Shown here one piece after another: positions 7,446-62,597 of a stretch of DNA of 64,000 nt. The stretch covers positions 2,992 through 66,991 of the forward strand of contig CAKPKR010000003.1 of assembly GCA_934167465.1 (NCBI GenBank), given 5' to 3'. Position 1 is the first letter of the stretch, and the number at the start of each line of letters is the position of its first letter. This stretch comes from an uncultured Bacilli bacterium (GTDB lineage: Bacteria; Bacillota_I; Bacilli_A; RF39; UBA660). Position numbers and translations under genes: made by a program. The notes under the pieces were generated by a model that was given only the letters and a program-made list of their open reading frames with translations, was not told where the DNA came from and made no database searches.

Positions 7446-8228
7446 ATGAAAATATATTTAGATATGATATTTATGCTTAATTTTTGTTTTGATTTTATAT
7501 TATTATTAAGTGTATCAATCGTATTAAGAAGAAATATTAGTATTAAAAGATTACTGTTAGGCTCCACTTTAGGTGGATTAAGCATATTTGTATTATTTAT
7601 GAAAATAAATAGTTTTGAGCTTTTTTTGATTAAATTTGTAATTAGTTTGTTGATGTTACTAGTAACATTTAAATATAAAGATTTAAAATATACATTAAGA
7701 AATTTAGGATTTCTATACATTAACAGTATTCTTTTGGGTGGATTCTTATATTTTTTAAACATCCAGTTCTCGTACAAACAAGAAGGGTTAGTATTCTATC
7801 ACAATGGATTATCAATTAATTTTATATTTTTAATCATAATTTCACCAATAATAATATATATTTATATAAGACAAGCTAAGTCTTTGAAAAATACTTACTC
7901 TTTATATCATAAAGTAAATATATATTTTAATAATAAGGTATATAAAGTAAATGGATTTTTAGATACCGGAAACAAACTAAAAGATCCAATTACAAATAAG
8001 CCAGTAATAATATTAAAAGATAATATAATAAAAAATATAAATGATTATTATCTAATTCCATATACAACAATAAAAGAAAATGGATTAATAAAATGTATAA
8101 AAGTAGACAAAATTGAAATTAGTGATGTTGGTATTAAAGAAAATGTATTAGTTGGATTTATAAAAAATTTAAAAATGGAAGGAATAGATTGTATTTTAAA
8201 TACAACTATAATGGAGGGAAAATGTTAA
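7446..8228 (+). CDS. spoIIGA: sporulation sigma-E processing peptidase SpoIIGA
   Basis: Several transmembrane helices are followed by FLDTGNKLKDPITNKPVIIL, an aspartic protease DTG motif in a SpoIIGA-like context. The gene sits directly upstream of the pro-sigma-E gene. Confidence 0.75.
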   Translation: MKIYLDMIFMLNFCFDFILLLSVSIVLRRNISIKRLLLGSTLGGLSIFVLFMKINSFELFLIKFVISLLMLLVTFKYKDLKYTLRNLGFLYINSILLGGFLYFLNIQFSYKQEGLVFYHNGLSINFIFLIIISPIIIYIYIRQAKSLKNTYSLYHKVNIYFNNKVYKVNGFLDTGNKLKDPITNKPVIILKDNIIKNINDYYLIPYTTIKENGLIKCIKVDKIEISDVGIKENVLVGFIKNLKMEGIDCILNTTIMEGKC

Positions 8229-8914
8229 AGAAATTATTATATAAAATATTAAGATATTTTAGAGATGAGAATAATATGTTTTTTATTGGTAGTACAGATA
8301 AACTGCCAGAACCACTTTCAAAAGAAGATGAAGTTTATTATGTAACAAAATCTATGGATGGTGATGAATATGCCAGAAGTAAATTAATAGAACATAATTT
8401 AAGATTAGTTGTTTTCTTATCTAAAAAATATGAAAATACAGGAGTTGATTTAGAAGATTTAGTAAGTATTGGAACAATAGGTTTAATAAAAGGTGTAAAT
8501 ACATATAAATTAGATAAAAATATTAAGTTAGCAACTTATGCCTCTCGTTGTATAGATAATGAAATATTAATGTTCTTAAGAAAGAATAAAAAAAGAAGAA
8601 CTGAAATTTCTTTTGAGGATAGTTTGAGTTATGATTCAGAAGGGAATGAATTACATTTAGAAGATATACTTGGAACTGAACCTGATATAGTAACAAAAGG
8701 AATTGAAAAAGAAAATGAAAAAAAATTATTAAGTATGGAAATTAGTAAATTGAATGCTAGAGACAAACAGATAATGACTTTGAGATATGGATTAAATAAT
8801 AATGAAGAAATGACTCAAAAAGATGTGGCAAATGTTTTAGGAATAAGTCAAAGTTATATTTCGAGAATTGAAAAAAAGGTTATTAGAAAATTAAAAGGTT
8901 TGATCAAAATGTAA
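8222..8914 (+). CDS. sigE: sporulation sigma factor SigE (pro-sigma-E)
   Basis: NLRLVVFLSKKYENTGVDLEDLVSIGTIGLIKGVNTY, KLATYASRCIDNEILMFLR and QKDVANVLGISQSYISRIEK match Bacillus SigE almost residue for residue. The gene is adjacent to spoIIGA. Confidence 0.85.
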   Translation: MLKKLLYKILRYFRDENNMFFIGSTDKLPEPLSKEDEVYYVTKSMDGDEYARSKLIEHNLRLVVFLSKKYENTGVDLEDLVSIGTIGLIKGVNTYKLDKNIKLATYASRCIDNEILMFLRKNKKRRTEISFEDSLSYDSEGNELHLEDILGTEPDIVTKGIEKENEKKLLSMEISKLNARDKQIMTLRYGLNNNEEMTQKDVANVLGISQSYISRIEKKVIRKLKGLIKM

Positions 8915-9047
8915 GTAAGTAATTCCTTTTTTTGTATTGTTTTTTTTAATGTTTATAATAATAAAAAGATGTAAATAAAAAAATGATGTCTTGCAATATG
9001 TAATATATTTATTATATAATAAAATAGAAAGGTAGTAGTGAAGTAGT
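8915..9047 (+). promoter_or_regulatory. shared promoter and leader module, copy 1 (TTGCAA-18-TATAAT plus conserved 5' UTR ATAGAAAGGTAGTAGTGAAGTAGT-ATG)
   Basis: A module of about 130 bp recurs almost identically upstream of the genes at 9048, 10055 and 49682. The -35 is at 8991-8996 and the -10 at 9015-9020. Confidence 0.55.
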
Positions 9048-9917
9048 ATGAAAAAAATGTTAAGAAGCAGAATTTTTTTGGTAATAGTAACATTAATAAT
9101 AGGAATAAGTGGAACATTATATGCAGCAAACTCATATAACGCAAATGCTATTGTTTATAATTCAAGTGATGGAACAAGTAAAAATGTAAATGAAGCTTTG
9201 AATGATTTATATACAAAAAGTAAAAAAGAATATTATGTAAATGGATTAGTAGCATATTATAATCCTGTAACAGGATCAAAATGTAAAGTAAGCGAAGCAA
9301 CATCAAATACAAATAGCAAAGGAACATATACAGAGGTAAAAACAGGATGTATGAAATGGTATATTTTTAAAGAAGATTTTGATAATTATACAATGATATT
9401 AGATCACAATACTACTGCAAGAATAAAATGGAATGATAATAATGTAAATGTATCTTATGAAAATAGCAATATTAAAGCCGAAGTAGATAAGTTAGTAAGT
9501 GTCTCAAAATGGAAAAATACTCCTAGATTAATTACAGCAAATGAATTATCCAAAATAACAAATAATTCAACTTTTAATGATTCAGTTGAAAATAATTGGT
9601 ATTTTTTTGATAGTAATAGTCATAATCAAACTGCTACATCAAAGGGTGCAAGCACTTATTCTTGGCTATATGATTATACATCTTCTTGTTCAAGTTGGGG
9701 ATGTAATGTGGAAGATAATAATTATTATACTGGCGTTGGTACATCAGGAACTGGTTATTTTTATGGATATTGGACATCAACAACAAGGGGAACAGCTGGT
9801 GCTGGATATGCTGTTTGGGATGTTTTCCATCATGGTAATTTAGATGGTGGTGATGCTAATTATGATGCACGTGGTATTCGCCCAGTTATAACAATTTCAA
9901 AAACAATATTAAAATAA
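9048..9917 (+). CDS. variable secreted protein family member A0 (conserved N-terminal module plus DUF1566/Lcl-C-like C-terminus)
   Basis: The N-terminal 60 aa are shared with the genes at 32462, 33087, 33715, 41108, 42438, 52511 and 61881. The C-terminus, YWTSTT...AVWDVFHHGNL...ARGIRPV, fits the DUF1566 / FGE-fold ending. Confidence 0.6.
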   Translation: MKKMLRSRIFLVIVTLIIGISGTLYAANSYNANAIVYNSSDGTSKNVNEALNDLYTKSKKEYYVNGLVAYYNPVTGSKCKVSEATSNTNSKGTYTEVKTGCMKWYIFKEDFDNYTMILDHNTTARIKWNDNNVNVSYENSNIKAEVDKLVSVSKWKNTPRLITANELSKITNNSTFNDSVENNWYFFDSNSHNQTATSKGASTYSWLYDYTSSCSSWGCNVEDNNYYTGVGTSGTGYFYGYWTSTTRGTAGAGYAVWDVFHHGNLDGGDANYDARGIRPVITISKTILK

Positions 9918-10054: not shown

Positions 10055-11698
10055 ATGAAAAAAGGATTTACATTAATAGAATTATTGGCAGTAATAGTGA
10101 TATTGGCAGTAATAGCATTAATCGCAACACCAATAATATTAAATGTAATAGAAGAATCAAAAAAGGGAGCCGCTGAACAATCAGTAATCGGATATGTAAA
10201 CGGAATAGAGAATAATGTTTTAGTATCAGAATTGGATAATAGTTCTATAGAAGATGGAAGTTACAATATAAATGAAATAGAAGTAGAAGTAAAAGGAAAT
10301 AAACCTGATAGTGGGAATATAACAATAGAAAAAGGAATAGTAGTAGATGCAGTAATGTGTATGAGTGGATATAAAGTAATATATTCAAATAGTAAAGCGG
10401 AAGTCCAAGGAAAATGTGAAGGAAATCTAGTATATAGTGAAGGTATTTTAAATGGAACAGATCCAGTATTAGGTGAAAATATGATACCAGTAACAATAGA
10501 AAAAGATGGAACAGTAAAATATGCAGATATAAATAAGAAATGGTATAGTTATGGAAATAAAGAATGGGCAAATGCAGTAATATTAAATACAAGTAATAGT
10601 TATAATGTAGGAGATATAATACCAGAAAGTGAAATAGAATCATATTTTGTGTGGATACCAAGATATAGATATAAATTATTTAATGTAGATAATACAAGTA
10701 AAGATTCAAAAACATATACAAATTATAAAGATATACCAAGTAAAGCAGAGGAAATAGAAATAGTATTTGAAAATAAAGAAACAAAAATAAGTAACGGAAA
10801 TAAAAATGGTGAATATTTAATGCATCCAGCTTTTACATCATTTGAAAGTAATGGAATGTGGGTAGGAAAATTTGAAACAGGATATAAAGGAGCAACAACT
10901 ACTTCAACAGCTCAAGTAAACTCAAATGATTCTACAAAAGTAATAGTTAAACCAAACGTTTATAGTTGGAGAAGTATAACAGTAGGAAATATCTTTTTAA
11001 CAAGTTATAATTATAAAAGAGATTTGGATTCACATATGATGAAGAATACCGAATGGGGAGCAGTAGCATATCTTTCACATTCAAAATATGGAATAAATAG
11101 TGAAGTAAGAATAAATAATAATAGTGCACATATAACAGGTTATGCAAAGACTGAACAACCAACTTGTGGTTGGACAAATAGTAATGAAGAATGTAATAAG
11201 TTTGAAAGTACGGCTTTAAATCAAGATGGAACATATACAAAAAGATATAATACCGAAATTGGATATTTAGCAAGTACAACAGGAAATATAACCGGAATCT
11301 ATGATATGAGTGGCGGATCTAATGAATATATGGCAGCCTATATGGCAGGACAACTAGGAAATAGTGGACTAATACCAACCGATTATGATTCAAAATATTT
11401 TAATGTATATAATTCATCAAGTACAGTAACAAGTTATCAATATCGCATCTTAGGAGATGCAACTGGAGAAATGGGACCATTTACAAATTTAAAATCAAGT
11501 GGAAGTGATGGAGACAAAACCTCATATGCATCAAGTTGGTATGCCGACCGTTCGAACTTTGTTGACTCTGGTAGCCCTTGGTTCAACCGAGGCGGCGATT
11601 ACGGCCATGGTGTAGTTGCAGGTCAGTTCAACTTCCTTAGGAGCCCGGGTGGTACTTACAGTTACGTTGGCTTCCGCCTAGTTTTAACACCTCAATAA
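10055..11698 (+). CDS. type IV prepilin-like N-terminus fused to an FGE-sulfatase/DUF1566-like domain protein (paralog B1)
   Basis: MKKGFTLIELLAVIVIL is a class III prepilin signal: G then F, with E at +5. The middle and C-terminal parts, TEWGAVAYL, GIYDMSGGSNEY, RGG...VGFRLV, resemble the FGE-sulfatase fold. Confidence 0.6.
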   Translation: MKKGFTLIELLAVIVILAVIALIATPIILNVIEESKKGAAEQSVIGYVNGIENNVLVSELDNSSIEDGSYNINEIEVEVKGNKPDSGNITIEKGIVVDAVMCMSGYKVIYSNSKAEVQGKCEGNLVYSEGILNGTDPVLGENMIPVTIEKDGTVKYADINKKWYSYGNKEWANAVILNTSNSYNVGDIIPESEIESYFVWIPRYRYKLFNVDNTSKDSKTYTNYKDIPSKAEEIEIVFENKETKISNGNKNGEYLMHPAFTSFESNGMWVGKFETGYKGATTTSTAQVNSNDSTKVIVKPNVYSWRSITVGNIFLTSYNYKRDLDSHMMKNTEWGAVAYLSHSKYGINSEVRINNNSAHITGYAKTEQPTCGWTNSNEECNKFESTALNQDGTYTKRYNTEIGYLASTTGNITGIYDMSGGSNEYMAAYMAGQLGNSGLIPTDYDSKYFNVYNSSSTVTSYQYRILGDATGEMGPFTNLKSSGSDGDKTSYASSWYADRSNFVDSGSPWFNRGGDYGHGVVAGQFNFLRSPGGTYSYVGFRLVLTPQ

Positions 11699-12082: not shown

Positions 12083-12220
12083 ATACATATTAACATTTTT
12101 AAAATATTTTTTCAATAATATTTTAAAATAATTTATAAATGAAATTTTTTATAATTTAATAAGAAATATTGATATATGTTTTTCATCCATTTTATGGTAA
12201 AATAATAATTGGTGGTAAGA

Positions 12221-14758
12221 ATGAATATAAATGATGTAGATATGAATAAAGTATCTCCAATGATGAAACAATATATAGAAATAAAAAAACAAAATCCTGA
12301 TATAGTAATTTTCTTTAGACTAGGGGATTTCTATGAAATGTTTTTTGAAGATGCAATTAAAGTATCTCATGAATTAGAATTAACTTTAACAGGAAAAAAT
12401 GCTGGTTTGGAAGAAAAAATTCCAATGTGTGGAATACCTCATCATGCAGCAAATCTATATATAGAGAAATTAGTTGATTTAGGATATAAAATAGGAATAT
12501 GTGAGCAATTAGAAGATCCTAAAAACGCTAAAGGAATAGTTAAAAGAGATTTAATTCAAATAATAAGTAAAGGGACAATAATAAATGATGAATCATTAAT
12601 TGCAAATGAAAATAACTATATAGCAAGTATAAATGATTTTAATCACGCCTTTGTAGTTACATACGCTGATATATCAACAGGAGAAATATATGCTGTCGTA
12701 CTAGAACATAATATAACAAATCTTGTATCATATGTAGTATCATTAGGAATAAAAGAAGTGATAATGTCTAATAAATTAGATAAAACTATTATGTCATTAT
12801 TGAAAAACCAATTTAAAATAACAGTAACTATAACAGATGAAATAGAAGATTTAGATATATATAAATATATATATGAAGATATAATTGATATGCGTTACAT
12901 TGAAAGTGTAAAATACTTATTAACATATATCAATAACACTCAAAAAAGAAGTTTATCTCATTTACAAAAATTACAAATAAAAGAAAATAAAAACTACCTA
13001 AAAATGGATATTCATACCAAAAGAAACCTAGAATTAACTGAGACATTAAGATTAAAACAAAGAAATTATTCATTAATATGGTTATTAGATAAAACTAAAA
13101 CAGCAATGGGATCAAGAATGCTTAAAAATATGATTGAAAATCCAATTTTAGATAAAAACGAATTAAATAAAAGGTATGATGTAATAGATACATTATTAAA
13201 AGAATTTATATTAAAAGACGATCTAAACAAATTACTATTTGAAGTATATGATTTAGAAAGACTAAGTGGAAGAGTAGCATTCGGAAATGCTAATGCTAAA
13301 GATCTACTACAACTTAAAAATTCTTTAAAAGTATTACCTGATATTAAAGAAATCTTAACAAAAATAAAATTCTATAAAAATATTGAACCATTAAATGATT
13401 TATATGAATTATTAGAAAAAGGAATATATGAAAATCCACCATTATCCATAAAAGAAGGATATATAATTAAAGATGGATATAGTAAAGAATTAGATGAATT
13501 AAAAGATTTGAGAAAAGGTGGAAAAGACTTTGTTGCTAAATTCGAAAGTGAAGAAAAAGAAAGAACCGGAATTAAAAATTTAAGAGTTGGATATAATCGT
13601 GTATTTGGATATTATATTGAAGTATCAAAAGGTAATTCTAATCTAATAAAAGAAGAATATGGTTATGAAAGAAGACAAACTTTAGCAAACTGTGAAAGAT
13701 ATATAAGTCCAATTCTAAAAGAAAAAGAATCATTAATATTAAATGCTGAAGAAAAAATAATTGATTTAGAATATGATTTATTTATAGAAATAAGAGAAAA
13801 AGTAAAAAAATACATTCCTGAATTACAAGAAATTTCAAAAGTAATAAGTGAAATAGATGTATTGCAATCATTCTCAACAGTAGCTGAAGAAAATAATTTT
13901 ATAAGACCAACATTAATTGATGAAAGAATAATAGAACTAAAAGAAAATAGACATCCAGTAGTTGAAAAAGTAATAAATGGCGAATATGTAGCTAATGATA
14001 TTATAATGAATGAAAAAACAGACATATTATTAATAACAGGACCTAATATGGCTGGTAAATCAACATATATGCGCCAGTTAGCAATTACAATAATTATGGC
14101 TCAAATAGGTTCATTTGTACCTGCTAAAGCAGCAAAAATGCCTATCTTTGATGCAATCTATACAAGAATTGGAGCTAGTGATGACTTAGTCTCAGGTGAA
14201 TCGACATTTATGGTTGAAATGAATGAAGCTAATAGGGCAATAACTAATGCTACTAAAAATAGTTTAATTTTATTTGATGAATTAGGTAGAGGTACAGCTA
14301 CATTTGATGGTATGGCTTTAGCTCAATCAATAATAGAATATATAAGCACAAACATTAAGTGCAAGACATTATTTTCAACTCATTATCACGAATTAACAGA
14401 TTTGGAAGATACATTACCAGACTTAAGAAATGTTCATGTAAGTGCTGTTGAAAGTGAAGGAAAAGTTACATTTTTACATAAAATTAAAGAAGGAAGTATT
14501 GATAAAAGTTATGGTATCCATGTTGCTAAATTAGCAAATTTACCTGACTCTTTAATCAAAAGAGCTGGTGAGATTTTAAAAGTATATGAAAATAAAGAAC
14601 AAAAAAGAGATGTTATTATTCAGCAAACTTTAAACTTTGATGAACCCGTTTCAAAAGAAAGTGAAATTGAAAAAGAATTAAAATCATTAGATGTTTTATC
14701 TTTAACACCAATAGAAGCAATGAATACCCTTTATAATTTAAAAAATAAAATTAAGTAG
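12221..14758 (+). CDS. mutS: DNA mismatch repair protein MutS
   Basis: The N-terminal mismatch-binding motif, the Walker A motif GPNMAGKSTYMRQ, and the typical overall length are present. Confidence 0.95.
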   Translation: MNINDVDMNKVSPMMKQYIEIKKQNPDIVIFFRLGDFYEMFFEDAIKVSHELELTLTGKNAGLEEKIPMCGIPHHAANLYIEKLVDLGYKIGICEQLEDPKNAKGIVKRDLIQIISKGTIINDESLIANENNYIASINDFNHAFVVTYADISTGEIYAVVLEHNITNLVSYVVSLGIKEVIMSNKLDKTIMSLLKNQFKITVTITDEIEDLDIYKYIYEDIIDMRYIESVKYLLTYINNTQKRSLSHLQKLQIKENKNYLKMDIHTKRNLELTETLRLKQRNYSLIWLLDKTKTAMGSRMLKNMIENPILDKNELNKRYDVIDTLLKEFILKDDLNKLLFEVYDLERLSGRVAFGNANAKDLLQLKNSLKVLPDIKEILTKIKFYKNIEPLNDLYELLEKGIYENPPLSIKEGYIIKDGYSKELDELKDLRKGGKDFVAKFESEEKERTGIKNLRVGYNRVFGYYIEVSKGNSNLIKEEYGYERRQTLANCERYISPILKEKESLILNAEEKIIDLEYDLFIEIREKVKKYIPELQEISKVISEIDVLQSFSTVAEENNFIRPTLIDERIIELKENRHPVVEKVINGEYVANDIIMNEKTDILLITGPNMAGKSTYMRQLAITIIMAQIGSFVPAKAAKMPIFDAIYTRIGASDDLVSGESTFMVEMNEANRAITNATKNSLILFDELGRGTATFDGMALAQSIIEYISTNIKCKTLFSTHYHELTDLEDTLPDLRNVHVSAVESEGKVTFLHKIKEGSIDKSYGIHVAKLANLPDSLIKRAGEILKVYENKEQKRDVIIQQTLNFDEPVSKESEIEKELKSLDVLSLTPIEAMNTLYNLKNKIK

Positions 14759-32333: not shown

Positions 32334-32407
32334 AAAAACTCCTTTCTTTAATAAAATAACTCAACTTCATAATTATATACTTTTTTTTAAAATTTGACAA
32401 GTTCACC

Positions 32408-32438
32408 TTGACAAAAACGTCTGGGGGGGGGGTATGAT
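32408..32438 (+). promoter_or_regulatory. poly-G promoter of A1: TTGACA, spacer with G10 at 32423-32432, TATGAT
   Basis: The spacer is 19 nt. The homopolymer lies exactly between the -35 and the -10. Confidence 0.7.
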
Positions 32439-32461
32439 ATTGATAGAAAGTAGGAATCTAG

Positions 32462-32917
32462 ATGAAAAAAGTAATAAAAAATAGAATGTTTTTGGTGATT
32501 ATAATAACTATCATAGTTACTAGTGTAAGTGTATATGCCGCAACCACATATAAAGCAACAGATGTAATATATAAAGCAAGTGATGGAACAAGTATGAATG
32601 TAAATGATGCTTTAAATGAATTATATAATAAAAGTAATAATACAGGATATCCTGATATTAAAATTTATTATGATTCAGGTTGGGGTGGTGGTACTTGTCA
32701 AGCATTTGCTAATTTTAATATACCTAAAGGGTATAATTATTTAGAAGTAATACCACCATATGTTAGTTCTGAACATAGTTCATCTATGGAAGGAAAAATA
32801 ATTTCTCTTAATCAAAAGATTAATGTTTCGGAAAAAGATAGTGTACGAGTAAATGTATATAATGAAGCTACTAGTGGAGCTTGTAGAGCAAATGGTACTA
32901 TTGTACTTAGTCATTAA
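32462..32917 (+). CDS. variable secreted protein family member A1
   Basis: The conserved N-terminus MKKVIKNRMFLVII...YAATTYKATDVIYKASDGTSMNVNDALNELYNK is followed by a variable C-terminus. Confidence 0.65.
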   Translation: MKKVIKNRMFLVIIITIIVTSVSVYAATTYKATDVIYKASDGTSMNVNDALNELYNKSNNTGYPDIKIYYDSGWGGGTCQAFANFNIPKGYNYLEVIPPYVSSEHSSSMEGKIISLNQKINVSEKDSVRVNVYNEATSGACRANGTIVLSH

Positions 32918-32924
32918 TTTTATA

Positions 32925-32975
32925 ACTATATTTCAATTATTATTATTATTATGAATAAAGGTTTTTAGAACCTTT
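32925..32975 (+). terminator. terminator after A1
   Basis: AAAGGTTtttagAACCTTT is followed by a T-run. An (ATT)5 microsatellite lies just upstream. Confidence 0.5.
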
Positions 32976-33032
32976 TTAAATTTTATTATTATTTTTTATA
33001 TAAAGTTTTTTTCACAATTTTTTGAAAATTTC

Positions 33033-33063
33033 TTGACTTTTACGTCTGGGGGGGGGGTATGAT
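33033..33063 (+). promoter_or_regulatory. poly-G promoter of A2: TTGACT, spacer with G10 at 33048-33057, TATGAT
   Basis: The spacer is 19 nt. Confidence 0.7.
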
Positions 33064-33086
33064 ATATCTAGAAAGTAGGAATCTAG

Positions 33087-33551
33087 ATGAAAAAAATAAT
33101 GAAAAGTAGAATATTTTTAGTAATTATAATAACTATCATAGTTGCTAGCGTAAGTGTATATGCCGCAACCACATATAAAGCAACAGATGTAATATATAAA
33201 GCAAGTGATGGAACAAGTATGAATGTAAATGATGCTTTAAATGAATTATATAATAAAAGTAATAATACAGGATATCCTGATATTACAATGTATCTTGATT
33301 CAGGTTATGTAGCAGCAGCTAATTGTGCAACCTCTGTTACTATTGATATACCTGATGGTTATAATTATTTAACTGTAACAACTACTGGTAATGTTTCACA
33401 AACTAAGATAGCAATGGATAGCACATATGTTACTTCTGGAGAGAAATATGATGTTTCAGAGAAAAATAGTATATTAATAAAAATTATACATTATAAAAAT
33501 TCTAGTGGTACGTATTCTAGAGCAATGGGAACTATTGTACTCAGTCATTAA
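33087..33551 (+). CDS. variable secreted protein family member A2
   Basis: A tandem paralog of A1 and A3. Confidence 0.65.
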   Translation: MKKIMKSRIFLVIIITIIVASVSVYAATTYKATDVIYKASDGTSMNVNDALNELYNKSNNTGYPDITMYLDSGYVAAANCATSVTIDIPDGYNYLTVTTTGNVSQTKIAMDSTYVTSGEKYDVSEKNSILIKIIHYKNSSGTYSRAMGTIVLSH

Positions 33552-33661
33552 TTTTTAGCTATATTTCAATTATTATTATTATGAATAAAGGTTTCTAGAA
33601 CCTTTTTAAATTTTATTATTACTTTTTATAAAATTTTTTTTTATAAATTTTTGAAAATTTC

Positions 33662-33691
33662 TTGACTTTTACGTCTGGGGGGGGGTATGAT
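33662..33691 (+). promoter_or_regulatory. poly-G promoter of A3: TTGACT, spacer with G9 at 33677-33685, TATGAT
   Basis: The spacer is 18 nt. Confidence 0.7.
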
Positions 33692-33714
33692 ATATCTAGA
33701 AAGTAGGAATCTAG

Positions 33715-34173
33715 ATGAAAAAAGTAATAAAAAATAGAATGTTTTTGGTGATTATAATAACTATCATAGTTACTAGTGTAAGTGTATATGCCGCAACCAC
33801 ATATAAAGCAACAGATGTAATATATAAAGCAAGTGATGGAACAAGTATGAATGTAAATGATGCTTTAAATGAATTATATAATAAAAGTAATAATACAGGA
33901 TATCCTAATATTACAATGTACCTTGATTCAGGTTATGTAGCAGCAGCTAATTGTTCTGATTCCATTACTATTGATATACCTGATGGGTATAATTATTTAA
34001 CTGTAACAATTAATTATCCATCTATTGATACAATAAAGATGGATGGAACAATTATTACTTCTGGAGAAAAATATAATGTTTCTGAAAAAGAAAAAGTATT
34101 AATAAGTGTATCACAAATAAATACGGGTGGAACTTATGTTAGAGCAAAAGGAACTATTGTTCTTACTCGTTAA
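33715..34173 (+). CDS. variable secreted protein family member A3
   Basis: A tandem paralog. Its C-terminus is GTIVLTR. Confidence 0.65.
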   Translation: MKKVIKNRMFLVIIITIIVTSVSVYAATTYKATDVIYKASDGTSMNVNDALNELYNKSNNTGYPNITMYLDSGYVAAANCSDSITIDIPDGYNYLTVTINYPSIDTIKMDGTIITSGEKYNVSEKEKVLISVSQINTGGTYVRAKGTIVLTR

Positions 34174-41053: not shown

Positions 41054-41083
41054 TTGACTTTTACGTCTGGGGGGGGGTATGAT
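41054..41083 (+). promoter_or_regulatory. poly-G promoter of A4: TTGACT, spacer with G9 at 41069-41077, TATGAT
   Basis: The spacer is 18 nt. The conserved upstream box is ACGCGAACAAAATTTCTGC. Confidence 0.7.
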
Positions 41084-41107
41084 AGTATTGGAAAGTAGGA
41101 ATTTATA

Positions 41108-41992
41108 ATGAAAAAAATAATGAAAAGCAGAATATTTTTAGTAATAATTACAATGATTATATGTATAAGTGGAACTTTATATGCAGCGGTCACATATAAA
41201 GCAACAGATGTAGTATATAATGCCAATGATGGAACAAGTAAAAATGTAAGTGAGGCTTTAAATGAATTGTATGAAAATTGTTCTATTACAAAAATATATC
41301 CAAAAGTAACAATAACTACAGAAGCAGATACTGTTATAGGCCAGACAGTAATTGCAACATTAATCAAAGATAAAGATGGAAATTCTCCTAAAGAAGAATA
41401 TGTAGTGAAGGGTACATTAACTAATAGTACAACTTTAGTGTTAAAAAAAATAGGAACTTATAAAATTACAGCAAGTTCTTCTGATGGATTAGAAAATTAT
41501 AGCGATGAAATAACTGTTCAATACGATAATGTATATAATATTAATTATACTGTAAAAAAATATCTTTTTAATAATAGTGATGTAACTGCAGTAACTGGAG
41601 GTTGGGGAGTGATGTGGGAGGCATCTGGTGGTACACCTGGAGCTTCAACGTCTGGTGGTACTGTTAATTCGACATTGTATTTAACTTCTGGATCATCGGG
41701 TAAAAAAGATATGTATGCGAAAAATTCAATTGATTTAACAGGATGGAAAAGAATTGTTATAGTATGTACATATTATAATAATTTAAATAATGGATGGGCA
41801 GGACTTCATTTATATCAACCTGGAGGTTATTGGAGTAAAGATGCTAAATTAGTTGTTGGAGATTTAGGAGCTTTTTCAGTTGGAACATTTACTTATGATA
41901 TTTCTAGTTCTAAATACCAAAAAGAAGTTAGATTTGCATTATTAGCGGCTAGAGTTGAATGGAAAATATCTAAAATATATTTAGAAAAATAA
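41108..41992 (+). CDS. variable secreted protein family member A4 (294 aa)
   Basis: The family N-terminus is followed by a long unique C-terminal region. Confidence 0.65.
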   Translation: MKKIMKSRIFLVIITMIICISGTLYAAVTYKATDVVYNANDGTSKNVSEALNELYENCSITKIYPKVTITTEADTVIGQTVIATLIKDKDGNSPKEEYVVKGTLTNSTTLVLKKIGTYKITASSSDGLENYSDEITVQYDNVYNINYTVKKYLFNNSDVTAVTGGWGVMWEASGGTPGASTSGGTVNSTLYLTSGSSGKKDMYAKNSIDLTGWKRIVIVCTYYNNLNNGWAGLHLYQPGGYWSKDAKLVVGDLGAFSVGTFTYDISSSKYQKEVRFALLAARVEWKISKIYLEK

Positions 41993-42384
41993 ATTTAATA
42001 GTAATTGTTTTTTAGATAAAAGAACCATCAATTTCAAAAATAGCAATTCTATTATAATAACTATGACAAATAAGATCAGAAGAATTACAACAAGGACAAA
42101 AAAATTGGTAATTATTACCATTATCATATAAATTTAATAAATCGTTAAAATTAGTACTGCATTTTTAAGAATTTAATATTATCATAACAATGTCGAAAGA
42201 CAAAGGAAGAAAAAGAAGACAAAACAAAAATCGTGGTGTAGTCTTCTTTTTTTATTGTTTTAAGACTCTTTCTGATAAATTTGCACATTATTTTATACTA
42301 TTTAATAAACTTTTACAAAATAATTTGCGAAAACATTGTATATATTAATTCGACAAAATTTACAAATACGAACAAAATTTCTGC

Positions 42385-42414
42385 TTGATTTTTACGCCTG
42401 GGGGGGGGTATAAT
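42385..42414 (+). promoter_or_regulatory. poly-G promoter of A5: TTGATT, spacer with G9 at 42400-42408, TATAAT
   Basis: The spacer is 18 nt. It has the same upstream box as A4 and A7. Confidence 0.7.
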
Positions 42415-42437
42415 CTAAGTAGGATAGGTGTTTATAG

Positions 42438-42926
42438 ATGAAAAAAATAATAAAAAGCAGAATATTTTTAGTAATAATTACAATGATTATATGTATAAGT
42501 GGAACATTATATGCCGCATCAACATACAAAGCAAGTGATGTAGTATATAACGCAAGTGATGGTACATCAACCAATGTTGAAAGTGCTTTAAATGATTTAT
42601 ATAATAAAACAAAAGAATATAGTAATAATTTTTTTCCATTTAATGTAAATTATGTATATAATAATTATATTGGTTCAACAAATAAAATAACATTTACTAC
42701 TACAATAGAAACAGGAAATATAGATATAACAAAATATAAAATAGTTGGTGGAACAACAAGAGTAGAACCATGGCTAAATACTCAAGGAAAATATATTGAT
42801 ACAACAAGTTCAATAATTAGTTGCAAAGAAGGTATTACGACTATAGAAATAACAGTAACAATTGATGCGGCATCTAGTCTAGCAGGACCCGTTAACTATA
42901 GCGGTGCAATATATAGAATTGAATAA
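42438..42926 (+). CDS. variable secreted protein family member A5 (162 aa)
   Basis: The family N-terminus is present. Confidence 0.65.
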   Translation: MKKIIKSRIFLVIITMIICISGTLYAASTYKASDVVYNASDGTSTNVESALNDLYNKTKEYSNNFFPFNVNYVYNNYIGSTNKITFTTTIETGNIDITKYKIVGGTTRVEPWLNTQGKYIDTTSSIISCKEGITTIEITVTIDAASSLAGPVNYSGAIYRIE

Positions 42927-49681: not shown

Positions 49682-51328
49682 ATGAAAAAACAAGGATTTA
49701 CACTTATTGAGTTGTTAGCAGTTATCGTAATATTAGCTGTGATAGCTTTAATCGCAACACCAATAATCTTAAATGTAATTGAAGATTCAAAAAAGGGAGC
49801 AGCCGAACAATCAGTAATCGGATATATAAATGGAATAGAAAATAGTGTATTAGTATCAGAATTAGATAATAATTCATTAGATGATGGAAGTTATAATATA
49901 AATGAATTAAATGTCGAAGTAAAAGGAAATAAACCAAGTAGTGGTAATGTAACATTAGAAAATGGAATAGTAGTAGATGCTGTAATTTGTATGAATGGAT
50001 ATAGAATAAATTATGCAAATAGTAAAGCTGAAGTCCAAGGAAAATGTGATGAAGCATTAGTATATAGTGAAGGTATTTTAAATGGAACAGATCCCGTATT
50101 AGGTGACAATATGATACCAGTCACAATTGAAAAAGATGGAACAGTAAAGTATGCTGATATAAACAAAAAATGGTATAGTTATAGAAATAAAGAATGGGCA
50201 AATGCAGTAATATTAAATACAAGTAATACTTACAAAGTAGGAGATATAATACCAGAAAGTGAAATTGAATCATATTTTGTATGGATACCTAGATATAAAT
50301 ATAAATTATTTAATGTAGATAATACAAGTAAAGATTCAAAGACATATACAATATATACAGATGTACCAAGTAAAGCAGAGGAAATAGAAATAATATTTGA
50401 AAATAAAGAAACAAAAGAAAGTATAGGAACAAAGAATGGAGAATATTTAACCCACCCAGCCTTCACATCATTTGAAAGTAATGGAATGTGGGTAGGAAAG
50501 TTTGAAACAGGCTATAAAGGAGCAACTTCAACTACTTCAGCTCAAGTAAATAGTAATGATTTAAGTAAAGTAATAGTTAAACCTAATGTATATAGTTGGC
50601 GAAATATAACTATAAATAATATATTCTTAACAAGTTATAATTATAAAAGAAATTTAGATTCACATATGATGAAGAATACCGAATGGGGAGCAGTAGCATA
50701 CCTATCACATTCAAAATATGGAATTAATAATGATATAAGAATAAATAATAATAGTGCATATATAACAGGATATGCCAAGACAGAACAACCAACATGTGGA
50801 TATACAAATAGCAATGAAAATTGTAATAGATTTGAAAGTACATCATTAAATCAAGATGGGACATATACCAAGAGATATAATACGGAAATAGGCTATTTAG
50901 CTAGTACAACCGGAAATATTACGGGAATCTATGATATGAGTGGTGGGTCACATGAATATGTAGCAGCATATATGGCAGGAAACTTAGGAAGTAGTGGAAT
51001 AACACCAACCGATTATGATTCAAAATACTTTAATGTATATAATGCATCAAGTACACAAACAAGTTATCAATATCGAATTTTAGGAGATGCAACTGGCGAA
51101 ATGGGACCATTTACAAATTTAAAATCAACTGGGAGCAATGGTGTTAAGACAGCATATGTTTCAAGTTGGTACGCTTCCGACGCGAATTTCGTTGACTCTT
51201 CTTACCCTTGGTTCATTCGTGGCATCCATTTCATCGGTGGTGTACTTGCAGGTCAGTTCAACTTCGCTAGGAACACAGGAACTAATAATGGTTATATTGG
51301 TTTCCGTTTAGTTTTAACACCACAATAA
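49682..51328 (+). CDS. type IV prepilin-like N-terminus fused to an FGE-sulfatase/DUF1566-like domain protein (paralog B2)
   Basis: MKKQGFTLIELLAVIVIL is a prepilin signal. The protein is collinear with B1 throughout. The last 150 nt are GC-rich. Confidence 0.6.
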   Translation: MKKQGFTLIELLAVIVILAVIALIATPIILNVIEDSKKGAAEQSVIGYINGIENSVLVSELDNNSLDDGSYNINELNVEVKGNKPSSGNVTLENGIVVDAVICMNGYRINYANSKAEVQGKCDEALVYSEGILNGTDPVLGDNMIPVTIEKDGTVKYADINKKWYSYRNKEWANAVILNTSNTYKVGDIIPESEIESYFVWIPRYKYKLFNVDNTSKDSKTYTIYTDVPSKAEEIEIIFENKETKESIGTKNGEYLTHPAFTSFESNGMWVGKFETGYKGATSTTSAQVNSNDLSKVIVKPNVYSWRNITINNIFLTSYNYKRNLDSHMMKNTEWGAVAYLSHSKYGINNDIRINNNSAYITGYAKTEQPTCGYTNSNENCNRFESTSLNQDGTYTKRYNTEIGYLASTTGNITGIYDMSGGSHEYVAAYMAGNLGSSGITPTDYDSKYFNVYNASSTQTSYQYRILGDATGEMGPFTNLKSTGSNGVKTAYVSSWYASDANFVDSSYPWFIRGIHFIGGVLAGQFNFARNTGTNNGYIGFRLVLTPQ

Positions 51329-51508: not shown

Positions 51509-52381
51509 ATGCTTATGCAAATAGAAAAAAATACATTCTATACTTGTAAATATGATAGACCATTCAAAGAAATATTTTTAAATGAACAAAATAAACATTT
51601 ATTAAAAGGATTATTAGAAACAATACTAAAAACAGAAATTGATAAAATAGAACTAAAGCCAAGCGAATTAAATAGTAATAATATAAATATAAAAAGAAAA
51701 TATTTAGATGCATTAATATATGTAAAAGGTAAAAAAATAGGAATAGAAGTAAATTCAAATGCTGAAGAAAATTATTTAAGACCAAGAAATGCATCATTTA
51801 TATTTAATATATATTCATCACATACATTAGTAAGTGAAACATATGATGAAAAAACCGATATAATTCAAATTAATTTATCATATAACTTAAAAGATAAAAA
51901 GAATATAAGAATATATAAATTAAGAGATGAAGAAGGAAAAGAATATATTGAAAATTTATATATTTACGAAATAAATATGGATTACTATAGGAAACTATGG
52001 TACAATAAAAAAGAAGAAGTAAAAGAAGCAAAATATCTAGTAATGTTAGATTTAGAAGAAAAAGAATTAAAGGAATTTGCAAAAAACGATAGAGAGGTGA
52101 ATGAATATATGGAAAAATTGGAGAATTTAAATAGTAATCCAGAATTTTACCAATATATGACACACGAAGAAGATGAAAGAAAGATACACAACTCTATGAT
52201 GTATGAAGCAGAGCAAAAAGGTCTAGAAAAAGGTATAGAACAAGGTTTAGAACAAGGAATTGAAGAAGGAAAAAATGCCGAAAAAATAGCTACAGCGACA
52301 AACTTTAAAAATCTTGGCATAGATATTGAAACTATATCAAAAGCAACTGGTCTATCAAAAGAAGAAATAGAAAAATTATAA
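51509..52381 (+). CDS. Rpn/YhgA-family PD-(D/E)XK recombination-promoting nuclease (putative transposase)
   Basis: The N-terminus YDRPFKEIFLNEQNKH...DALIYVKGKKIGIEV is present. The characteristic C-terminal tail has KGLEKGIEQGLEQGIEEG repeats plus IATATNFKNLGIDIETISKATGLSKEEIEKL. Confidence 0.6.
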   Translation: MLMQIEKNTFYTCKYDRPFKEIFLNEQNKHLLKGLLETILKTEIDKIELKPSELNSNNINIKRKYLDALIYVKGKKIGIEVNSNAEENYLRPRNASFIFNIYSSHTLVSETYDEKTDIIQINLSYNLKDKKNIRIYKLRDEEGKEYIENLYIYEINMDYYRKLWYNKKEEVKEAKYLVMLDLEEKELKEFAKNDREVNEYMEKLENLNSNPEFYQYMTHEEDERKIHNSMMYEAEQKGLEKGIEQGLEQGIEEGKNAEKIATATNFKNLGIDIETISKATGLSKEEIEKL

Positions 52382-52455
52382 TAAACTTCATTTTAAATAA
52401 TGAAGTTTTGTATCTATTAATTTGACAAAAATCATAATACGAACAAAAATTCTAC

Positions 52456-52487
52456 TTGACTTTTACGTCTGGGGGGGGGGGTATGAT
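52456..52487 (+). promoter_or_regulatory. poly-G promoter of A6: TTGACT, spacer with G11 at 52471-52481, TATGAT
   Basis: The spacer is 20 nt. This is the longest tract in the window. Confidence 0.7.
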
Positions 52488-52510
52488 AGTAATGGAAAGT
52501 AGGAATCTAG

Positions 52511-53122
52511 ATGAAAAAAGTAATAAAAAGTAGAATATTTTTAGTAATAATTACGATGATTATATGTATAAGCGGAACATTATATGCAGCTAATACATAT
52601 AAAGCATCAGATGTAGTATATAATACCAGTGATGGAACAAGTAAAAATGTAAGTGAAGTCTTAAACGAGTTATATGATAAATCAAATAACAATTCTGATT
52701 TAGAATTAATATATGATGCAATGGTTTCTAAAGGAGTAACACCATCTAGTAAAAAGATAGATGATATTATAATGGCAATCAAAACAAAGATGGGAGTTTC
52801 AACTCATATAGCATCTGTTAGATTTGCAAATAGAGCCACTAATAGTTCTTCATATACAAGGGGTAGAATGTATTTATATGACTCTAGTGGGACAGTACTA
52901 TCATCTAGTTGGGCAGAAGGATCAGGAGAATCAACAATTTATGGTGAGGATGTTAGAGTCAGTTCTGGTACAATTTTATATGCTGGTTTTTCATCAGCAT
53001 CTGATAAAAATACAAGAGGAATATTGCAGCTTGTTGTTGATGGAAATGTGGTAACATCTGTATTTGTTGAAACAAGCAAAGGAACGTCAAATACTAATAA
53101 AATTACAGTTTTGGATTCTTAA
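52511..53122 (+). CDS. variable secreted protein family member A6 (203 aa)
   Basis: The family N-terminus is present. Confidence 0.65.
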   Translation: MKKVIKSRIFLVIITMIICISGTLYAANTYKASDVVYNTSDGTSKNVSEVLNELYDKSNNNSDLELIYDAMVSKGVTPSSKKIDDIIMAIKTKMGVSTHIASVRFANRATNSSSYTRGRMYLYDSSGTVLSSSWAEGSGESTIYGEDVRVSSGTILYAGFSSASDKNTRGILQLVVDGNVVTSVFVETSKGTSNTNKITVLDS

Positions 53123-61827: not shown

Positions 61828-61858
61828 TTGATTTTTACGCCTGGGGGGGGGGTATAAT
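61828..61858 (+). promoter_or_regulatory. poly-G promoter of A7: TTGATT, spacer with G10 at 61843-61852, TATAAT
   Basis: The spacer is 19 nt. It has the same upstream box, ACGCGAACAAAATTTCTGC. Confidence 0.7.
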
Positions 61859-61880
61859 CTAAGTAGGATAGGTGTTATAA

Positions 61881-62597
61881 ATGAAAAAAATAATAAAAAA
61901 TAAAATAATTTTAATAGTAATATTATGTATAATAAGTTGTGGTATAGGAGTATATGCTGCAACAACATATAAAGCAAGTGATATAGTATATAACGCAAGT
62001 GACGGAACAAGTATAAATGTAAATGATGCTTTAAATGATATTTATACAATCAAAACACAAGGTAATGCAACAGAAAATGATATTTTGAATGGAAAAACAG
62101 CTGTCGTAAAAGGAAAAATGATAACTGGTACATTTAAAAATAATTTTACCTTTGAAACAATAGAAAACCCGGTTGGTACATCTATTATGGATTATAATGA
62201 GAAAAGAAAAGATAAATATTTGACTTTTACACTAGGTGAAAGGTTAAGTTACAATGATACTAATTATTCTGATTATATGTGTTATATTTATCCTATAGAT
62301 TTAACTAATGTTTCAACACTCATCTTGTATCAATGGAATTATATATCGATGCATTTTACAGTAGCAATTTCATTATTTGATACTCCATTATATTCTAGGC
62401 AAGAAATAATAGATAATGCATTTGCAACGTGGACATATTCGACATCAGGTAGTAAAAAGGCATCTAATTACAATATTAAAGAAATTGATGTAAGAAATGT
62501 AACTGGTAAGAAGTATATCAATATTGCAGTTGTTAGTAAGAATAATTCTTCTGATGAATATTATATGCTTACTAAAAATATAATATCGTTTAATTAA
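61881..62597 (+). CDS. variable secreted protein family member A7 (238 aa)
   Basis: It is the most diverged family N-terminus: MKKIIKNKIILIVIL...YAATTYKASDIVYNASDGTSINVNDALNDIY. Confidence 0.6.
   Translation: MKKIIKNKIILIVILCIISCGIGVYAATTYKASDIVYNASDGTSINVNDALNDIYTIKTQGNATENDILNGKTAVVKGKMITGTFKNNFTFETIENPVGTSIMDYNEKRKDKYLTFTLGERLSYNDTNYSDYMCYIYPIDLTNVSTLILYQWNYISMHFTVAISLFDTPLYSRQEIIDNAFATWTYSTSGSKKASNYNIKEIDVRNVTGKKYINIAVVSKNNSSDEYYMLTKNIISFN

Follow-up and report, generated by a model that had tools for sequence, protein, structure and literature searches.

In a 64,000-nt stretch of DNA from an uncultured Bacilli bacterium (the whole stretch that was analysed, referred to here as the window), seven paralogous genes coding for small, putatively exported proteins are each preceded by a promoter-like cassette in which a run of 9 to 11 guanines lies between a -35-like and a -10 hexamer. 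This arrangement is conserved across paralogs and in other species, and the length of the run differs between genomes that are otherwise nearly identical, the polymorphism being confined to the G runs. The reading that we favour, with a probability of about 0.65, is that slippage at the G run changes the spacer of the family promoters and, with it, their transcription. The original prediction had singled out one copy, A6, which carries the longest tract, as an OFF promoter; its state in this genome is considered below together with that of the other copies.

When the upstream regions of A1-A7 are aligned, the same elements appear in the same order: TTGAC(T/A) or TTGATT, nine nucleotides, the G run, TAT(G/A)AT, 22-24 nt and the ATG. 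The -35-like hexamer is TTGACT, TTGACA or TTGATT, with CTTGA invariant in 7/7 paralogs, and the nine fixed spacer bases are TTTACGTCT or a variant of it. Since the spacer is made of these nine bases plus n G's, it measures 18 nt in A3, A4 and A5, 19 nt in A1, A2 and A7, and 20 nt in A6, exactly as originally read. The leader between the -10 hexamer and the ATG contains a GGAAAGTAGGA-type ribosome-binding sequence in most copies, with a variant leader in A5 and A7. The predicted promoter is near-consensus for the sigma-A/sigma-70 type and contains the tract inside its spacer, in agreement with what had been claimed, and in silico this position is conserved in the paralogs and in other species. 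All seven copies (G9-G11) have a homopolymer long enough to slip, for which about 7-8 nt or more are needed. The description as a seven-member poly-G family was correct for the seven tract promoters, but it overlooked an eighth paralog, A0, which is tract-free. Apart from the A6 locus, the family members and the neighbouring genes referred to below are the following:

8189-8914, sigma-70-family gene (241 aa, regions 2 and 4), directly upstream of A0
8984-9917, + strand, A0, tract-free eighth paralog: TTGCAA-18 nt-TATAAT (promoter 8984-9013), ORF 9048-9917 (289 aa)
10055-11698, gene for a protein with a prepilin-type N-terminal methylation motif, just 3' of A0
12209-14758, MutS gene, intact, with all five domains
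32408-32917, + strand, A1: TTGACA, 19-nt spacer including G10 (32423-32432), TATGAT, ORF 32462-32917
33033-33551, + strand, A2: G10 (33048-33057), 19-nt spacer, ORF 33087-33551
33662-34173, + strand, A3: G9 (33677-33685), 18-nt spacer, ORF 33715-34173
41054-41992, + strand, A4: G9 (41069-41077), 18-nt spacer, ORF 41108-41992
42385-42926, + strand, A5: TTGATT, G9 (42400-42408), 18-nt spacer, TATAAT, ORF 42438-42926
49682-51328, gene for a second protein with a prepilin-type N-terminal methylation motif, just 5' of the Rpn gene and A6
61828-62597, + strand, A7: TTGATT, G10 (61843-61852), 19-nt spacer, TATAAT, ORF 61881-62597

The seven G runs (three G9, three G10 and one G11) are all on the + strand, and no further run of seven or more G or C is found in the window. 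Overlapping G8 matches number 19, against 0.12 expected from shuffled sequences, and 0/100 shuffles reach this number. A role as G-quadruplex or in the 5'-UTR was rejected, there being a single G run, located upstream of the -10. The A0 promoter is identical in nine metagenome contigs that cover it (one of them partly), and in a tenth (L085) it has substitutions in the spacer and keeps the TTGCAA-18-TATAAT spacing; A0 thereby provides the family with a reference of fixed spacer length. An additional element, the box (A/G)CGAACAAAATTTCT (also written ACGAACAAAATTTCT), is found immediately 5' of the -35 in the majority of family promoters and is shared between species: it is carried by A4-A7 (42368-42382 in A5), by the P0058, P0068 and P0038 loci, by L062-L075 and L088-L092, and, in related metagenome-assembled genomes (MAGs), by L009, L011, L014, L015 and L017, and it is absent from A1-A3. 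This box may be a UP-element-like sequence or a regulator site. An Rfam scan of the window returned no RNA family, and exact-pattern scans for the cassette gave 0 matches in the genome contig collection, where the source species is missing or masked, and 0 in the viral contig collection; there is no sign of a phage origin.

The same architecture (TTGACA/TTGAAA, 8-9 nt, G10-11, TATGAT/TATAAT) is present in two other MAG species, and a JGI metagenome containing a related strain has nine such promoters (two G9 and seven G10). One of the two MAGs (CAZXOH01; L009-L013 and L015-L017) combines G10/G11 tracts, interrupted tracts and tract-free promoters within one family. It is labelled 'uncultured Muribaculaceae bacterium', a label that is probably wrong because its GC content is about 22%, and it carries this Firmicute-type family. 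The promoter in L015 has an 8-nt fixed part that, with G11, gives 19 nt, and the tract-free family promoter in L016 reads TTGACA-18-TATGAT. In L009 (2940-3000) the tract is interrupted (GGGGAGGGGGGG), the spacer is 21 nt and the gene is intact (148 aa); in L010 (2940-3000) the interrupted tract (GAGGGGGAGGG) gives a 20-nt spacer and the gene runs off the contig. These interrupted tracts may be partly 'locked' switches. The other related MAG is labelled 'uncultured Bacilli bacterium' (Hadza); in its contig L014 (2860-3000) the box, TTGAAA, 9 nt plus G10 and TATAAT are followed by a longer leader, with a second ribosome-binding site, that places the promoter about 100 nt before the ATG.

The proteins encoded behind these promoters share an N-terminal module and differ in the rest. 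The seven ORFs A1-A7 have about 55 N-terminal residues in common (mean column identity of 77% over the first 62 residues) and mutually unrelated C-terminal parts, a conserved cassette followed by a divergent mature region, as in the Vlp proteins. The shared N-terminus is composed of a hydrophobic signal or anchor with (V/L)YA-A at its end, which looks like a signal peptidase I site (VYA or LYA followed by A), and the motif TYKA(T/S)DV(V/I)YNxSDGTSxNVxxALN(E/D)LY, of about 30 residues, which in A6 reads TYKASDVVYNxSDGTSxNVxxxLNELY. A lipobox cysteine is not conserved, and A1-A3 have no Cys in the signal region. Profile searches of the family proteins against Pfam, NCBIfam, PHROGs and PDB gave no match above threshold (sub-threshold noise included Phage_spike_2, E = 0.07). 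A profile of the N-terminal module recovered 1,223 cluster representatives at E <= 0.001, 113 of them at E <= 1e-10, and among the best 150 of the 1,223 the module is always N-terminal and the proteins are short (56-368 aa). The C-terminal domain of A6 has three full-length relatives among 5.8 billion proteins. It is predicted to be a beta-sandwich; the AlphaFold model of A6 is poor (pLDDT 57.7), and Foldseek found no match for it in PDB at E <= 0.001. We take the family to consist of uncharacterised proteins that are exported or anchored at the surface and whose heads can be exchanged. In P0012 and P0016 an A6-type head is joined to other signal-peptide variants, which indicates recombination between modules.

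Rearrangement is also apparent in the tandem array A1-A2-A3 (window 32340-34173), which differs from sample to sample: L036 (G8) and L037 (G10) have the A3 body joined to an A1-type promoter and leader, L035 has an A2-like upstream region, and in L029 an HU gene takes the place of A1 in front of A2. This variation indicates recombination or deletion among the tandem paralogs. The family members of the window sit among housekeeping genes (ileS, RNase J, ffh, topA) and do not form a single island, and those on L088-L092 and L093-L094 sit among sporulation and cell-wall genes (YabP, YqfD, SpoIIP, MurG, MurB, PBP).

Proteins identical to those of the window family were found in human-gut metagenome assemblies only, among them those from Hadza and other cohorts. 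The host would be a walled Firmicute and not a mollicute, and is probably spore-forming, because the window contains RNase J1, SepF, DivIVA and MutS genes and related contigs encode YabP, YqfD, SpoIIP, MurG, MurB and PBPs. The GC content of the window is 25.3%. No MutL gene adjoins the MutS gene in the window; from its gene content, mismatch repair does not seem to be obviously missing in the host, despite the many hypermutable G tracts. A 232-aa sigma gene similar to that beside A0 is found on L088, about 6 kb upstream of the family member P0038. The two proteins with prepilin-type motifs have 547 and 548 aa.

Tract lengths were compared in contigs that encode exactly the same proteins as the window, the tract comparison being limited to those at least 99% identical to it. 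In these human-gut contigs the G tracts differ in length from the window in 19/35 comparisons, against 5/179 for A/T runs of 7-9 nt, and in most contigs the G tract is the sole alignment gap with respect to the window. Among 67 promoter observations from outside the window there are two G8, 15 G9, 42 G10 and eight G11; lengths of 8-11 are found at nearly every locus while the flanks remain constant, and the combinations differ from sample to sample. Thus, the claimed variability of the tracts is borne out between near-identical genomes, as is, at the level of the tracts, the claim of a pattern of subset expression, with different combinations of lengths per sample, as for a phase-variable repertoire. 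The lengths are the consensus of often low-coverage Illumina assemblies, in which errors of one nucleotide are possible. Assembly error alone is an unlikely cause of the differences, because A/T runs are stable by contrast and because the same few lengths recur in independent assemblies. N gaps or contig ends are found at or within a few bases of the tract in L094 (about 9950) and L095 (about 4440), and contig ends near it in L007, L008, L032, L038, L039, L052-L055, L061, L076, L096 and L097. They could be due to the repeated cassette, to poor poly-G coverage or to mixed lengths, and were given no weight, because a repeated cassette of about 250 nt would also produce them.

A6 has the longest tract of the window, as had been pointed out. 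This is so in the present genome (G11, 20 nt) but is not a property of the locus: the identical gene has G10 in 5/6 other samples (L002-L006) and G11 in the remaining one (L001). G11 is therefore a transient state and does not characterise A6 as such, most of the other samples having G10 in this gene. Outside A6, G11 is found at A2 (L030), A5 (L048), the P0058 locus (L063, L069, L071) and two further loci (L089, L094). The A6 locus is organised as follows:

51509-52381, + strand, gene of a Rpn-family (PD-(D/E)XK) recombination-promoting nuclease/putative transposase, directly upstream of A6
52383-52408, + strand, weak terminator-like element behind the Rpn gene: AT-rich hairpin (AAACTTCATT / AATGAAGTTT) with a T-rich stretch 3' of it
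52439-52453, + strand, upstream box ACGAACAAAA(A/T)TTCT, just 5' of the A6 -35
52456-52461, + strand, -35-like hexamer TTGACT, read from the sequence
52462-52481, + strand, 20-nt spacer, TTTACGTCT plus G11
52471-52481, + strand, G11 tract, longest of the seven in the window, length-polymorphic between samples
52482-52487, + strand, -10 hexamer TATGAT, ending 23 nt before the ATG
52494-52504, + strand, ribosome-binding region GGAAAGTAGGA, with AGGA 6 nt before the ATG, conserved in most paralogs
52511-53122, + strand, A6 ORF (203 aa): N-terminal signal or anchor, motif of about 30 aa and lineage-specific C-terminal domain

The position of A6 directly 3' of an Rpn-family nuclease gene, also part of the original prediction, agrees with two profile matches above their cut-offs: TIGR01784, by a narrow margin (53.5 bits, cut-off 52.1), and PF12784 (41.5 bits, cut-off 27.4, E = 1.7e-10). 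A module made up of the 3' end of the Rpn gene, the hairpin and the poly-G promoter is duplicated (window 52111-52510 matches positions 1-400 of L062/L069), and a second, diverged Rpn paralog precedes the family member P0058, with an intergenic region nearly identical to that of A6 in which the hairpin is conserved.

According to the proposed mechanism, A6 would belong to a set of genes for small exported proteins, at least eight in the window and others in the rest of the genome, whose products have a common signal or anchor, a motif of about 30 residues and unrelated C-terminal domains, seven of the eight being driven by a sigma-A-type cassette whose spacer consists of nine fixed bases and a G run. 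The hexamers would constitute a working promoter, and slipped-strand mispairing at replication, presumably at a high rate within the lineage, would add or remove G's in each gene independently, moving the spacer between 17 and 20 nt (G8-G11). This would alter the contact of RNA polymerase with both hexamers and result in a stochastic, heritable and reversible change of transcription, either on/off or graded, so that cells or populations would display different subsets of the family. G11, with 20 nt, would be the setting furthest from an optimum of 17-18 nt, which would make A6 the likeliest of the copies to be silent or weakest; a good spacing would require the loss of two or three G's, one at a time.

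Which lengths would be ON can be approached from several sides. Promoter libraries in Escherichia coli show that spacers of 15-19 bp are optimal and those of 20-23 bp suboptimal for sigma-70 (PMC8695583), and in the poly-G spacers of porA and tp0126 activity peaks at 17 nt and is lost 2 nt away (PMC7864442). A spacer of 20 nt is thus outside the range that works well for sigma-70, in line with the loss of most activity asserted for this length. The tract-free family promoters (A0 and L016) have 18-nt spacers and the three best consensus housekeeping-type promoters in the window have spacers of 16-17 nt; when all promoter-like sites of the window were counted by spacer length, the result was no different from that of Markov-shuffled sequence, and only these three best sites are informative. 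Taken together, the 18 nt of the tract-free promoters, the 16-17 nt of the best promoters, the 17 nt of porA and tp0126 and the suboptimal 20-23 bp of E. coli lead us to expect that A6 would be silent or weakest. Low activity, or none, is plausible for a 20-nt spacer: at G11, A6 would probably be the weakest of the seven copies, and it is rather likely that it would be effectively OFF. The same spacer logic that disfavours G11 implies that the G10 copies could also be largely off, so the three with 19 nt (A1, A2 and A7) may be almost as quiet as A6. The G9 copies have one nucleotide more than the 17-nt optimum, and the statement that they are on would derive from one line of evidence, the 18-nt spacers of the tract-free paralogs.

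G10 (19 nt) is the most frequent setting, and G8, which would give the canonical optimum of 17 nt, is rare (2/67). This mode may reflect either a functional 19-nt spacer or a mutational equilibrium like that of the Campylobacter jejuni tracts, in which insertions dominate at G8 and deletions at G11, maintaining G9-G10 (PMC8355987). The first possibility leads to the alternative that survives best, unlikely as it appears to us: 19 nt would be the ON setting, perhaps as a result of long G.C runs being shorter and less twisted than B-DNA of the usual kind, and G9 and G11 would both be reduced, so that A6 would still be down and 'G9 on' would be wrong. It agrees with the predominance of G10 in every data set (42/67, 7/9 in the JGI metagenome and 5/6 at A6) and with L015, in which a shorter fixed part and a longer tract again add up to 19 nt. 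However, the tract-free paralogs use 18 nt, the spacers of porA and tp0126, which also consist mostly of G's, have their optimum at 17 nt (PMC7864442), and a G9-G10 mode can come from mutational bias alone (PMC8355987). A displacement of the optimum to 19 nt by A-form geometry of the G run was set aside on the same grounds, the poly-G spacers of porA and tp0126 peaking at 17 nt.

It is improbable, in our view, that the tract is hypermutable and nearly neutral, with expression decided by the -10 hexamer, by the upstream box and an activator or by another sigma factor, in which case A6 would not be OFF. The intact gene that persists behind the 21-nt interrupted tract of L009 speaks for such a neutrality, and would be compatible both with an OFF copy that is tolerated and with transcription that depends less on spacing; the conserved ACGAACAAAATTTCT box and the sigma-70-family gene beside A0 point in the same direction, and may leave room for additional regulation. 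A neutral tract, on the other hand, is difficult to reconcile with a near-consensus -35 fixed 9 nt from the tract in at least two species, with the exact position of the tract and its narrow range of lengths (8-11) being kept in many paralogs, and with tract-free copies that keep both hexamers at 18 nt.

Expression of A6 by read-through from the Rpn gene, which would make its own promoter irrelevant, is quite improbable, notwithstanding that the two genes have the same orientation and are 129 nt apart, and that the intervening hairpin, rich in A-T and G-U pairs throughout, is weak (RNA fold of -10 kcal/mol, z = -2.3 against shuffles) and was not called by a terminator scan that requires at least three G-C pairs. 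Since the hairpin is weak, partial read-through into A6 would be possible; nevertheless, the hairpin and its T-rich tail are conserved at the second Rpn-family-gene junction, which suggests a working terminator, and the Rpn gene is fragmented in some samples, as in L001 (sample ERZ27287287), where it is called as two shorter genes and A6 is intact. Finally, that the tract is fixed and its length differences are homopolymer sequencing or assembly errors, as the low coverage (2-8x) of many contigs and their frequent ends or N gaps at the tract might lead one to think, can be dismissed as most improbable in view of the stability of A/T homopolymers in the same contigs (5/179 against 19/35), of the same alternative lengths being obtained in independent assemblies from different assemblers and of a promoter-spacer placement conserved across species, which is the classical pattern of a contingency locus.

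Slippage-driven change of the promoter spacer, the reading preferred here, belongs to a well-known class of mechanisms, represented by the vlp genes of Mycoplasma hyorhinis, porA of Neisseria meningitidis and tp0126 of Treponema pallidum. The vlp genes are switched by a poly-A tract in the promoter (PMC10502178), and the present family resembles them in having many paralogs with a conserved 5' part (promoter and signal peptide) and external regions that diverge, each gene having its own promoter homopolymer, which in Vlp allows independent, combinatorial ON/OFF switching (PMC10502178). In contrast to Vlp, the tract is poly-G, there is no sequence similarity, the proteins have neither a conserved lipobox (A1-A3 have no Cys) nor Vlp-type tandem repeats, and the host is not a mollicute but a gut Firmicute that has a wall and apparently forms spores. 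With porA and tp0126 it shares a poly-G tract within the promoter spacer; in porA and tp0126 the length of the tract sets the -35/-10 distance and, with it, the level of transcription (PMC7864442). Those are, however, single genes for outer-membrane proteins of Gram-negatives and spirochaetes, whereas here a whole paralogous family of a low-GC Firmicute is involved, and its spacers of 17-20 nt lie mostly on the long side of their 17-nt optimum. Judging from the protein sequences, which show neither homology nor a conserved lipobox, the family does not belong to the Vlp, porA or tp0126 protein families.

A paralogous family of surface proteins with promoter poly-G tracts is also known in T. pallidum (tpr subfamily II and tprL), with tracts of 7-11 G's that vary within isolates; 8 G's or fewer allow transcription and longer tracts lower it (PMC7864442). 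Unlike in the present cassette, the tprL tract overlaps the -10 region, adjacent to the start site, leaving the -35/-10 spacing unaltered, and the proteins are unrelated. The range of lengths (G8-G11, mostly G9-G10) is that of the poly-G contingency loci of C. jejuni, which are numerous in each genome and whose combinations are described as 'phasotypes' (PMC8355987). In C. jejuni most tracts are located within coding frames, where they switch translation, whereas here all of them are in promoters, and C. jejuni lacks mismatch repair, whereas MutS is present here. A literature search for this family, or for SSR phase variation in RF39 or the gut, found no relevant description, and the gene family itself appears to be undescribed.

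Phase variation in gut commensals is known mostly through invertible promoters (Bacteroides, Clostridioides), and repeat-driven promoter switches are known mainly in pathogens (Neisseria, Haemophilus, Treponema, Mycoplasma and Campylobacter). The family described here would provide a clear example, driven by repeats and involving many genes, in a bacterium of the human gut (Hadza samples included) that is uncultured, very low in GC and apparently spore-forming, with switch settings that are visibly different between people's metagenomes and states that can be scored from sequence data. It also singles out the exported family proteins as probable targets of selection by the host or by phages. 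The claim specific to A6 is of lesser weight, because G11 is the momentary state of one genome. Genes for Rpn recombination-promoting nucleases are found directly upstream of at least two family members (A6 and P0058), and a wider reading, which is speculative and rather unlikely, is that of a modular surface-display system in which recombination, possibly aided by Rpn, joins poly-G expression cassettes to C-terminal domains from a large pool whose members are unrelated. If this were true, the ON/OFF phasotype of the family would be readable straight from human gut metagenomes.
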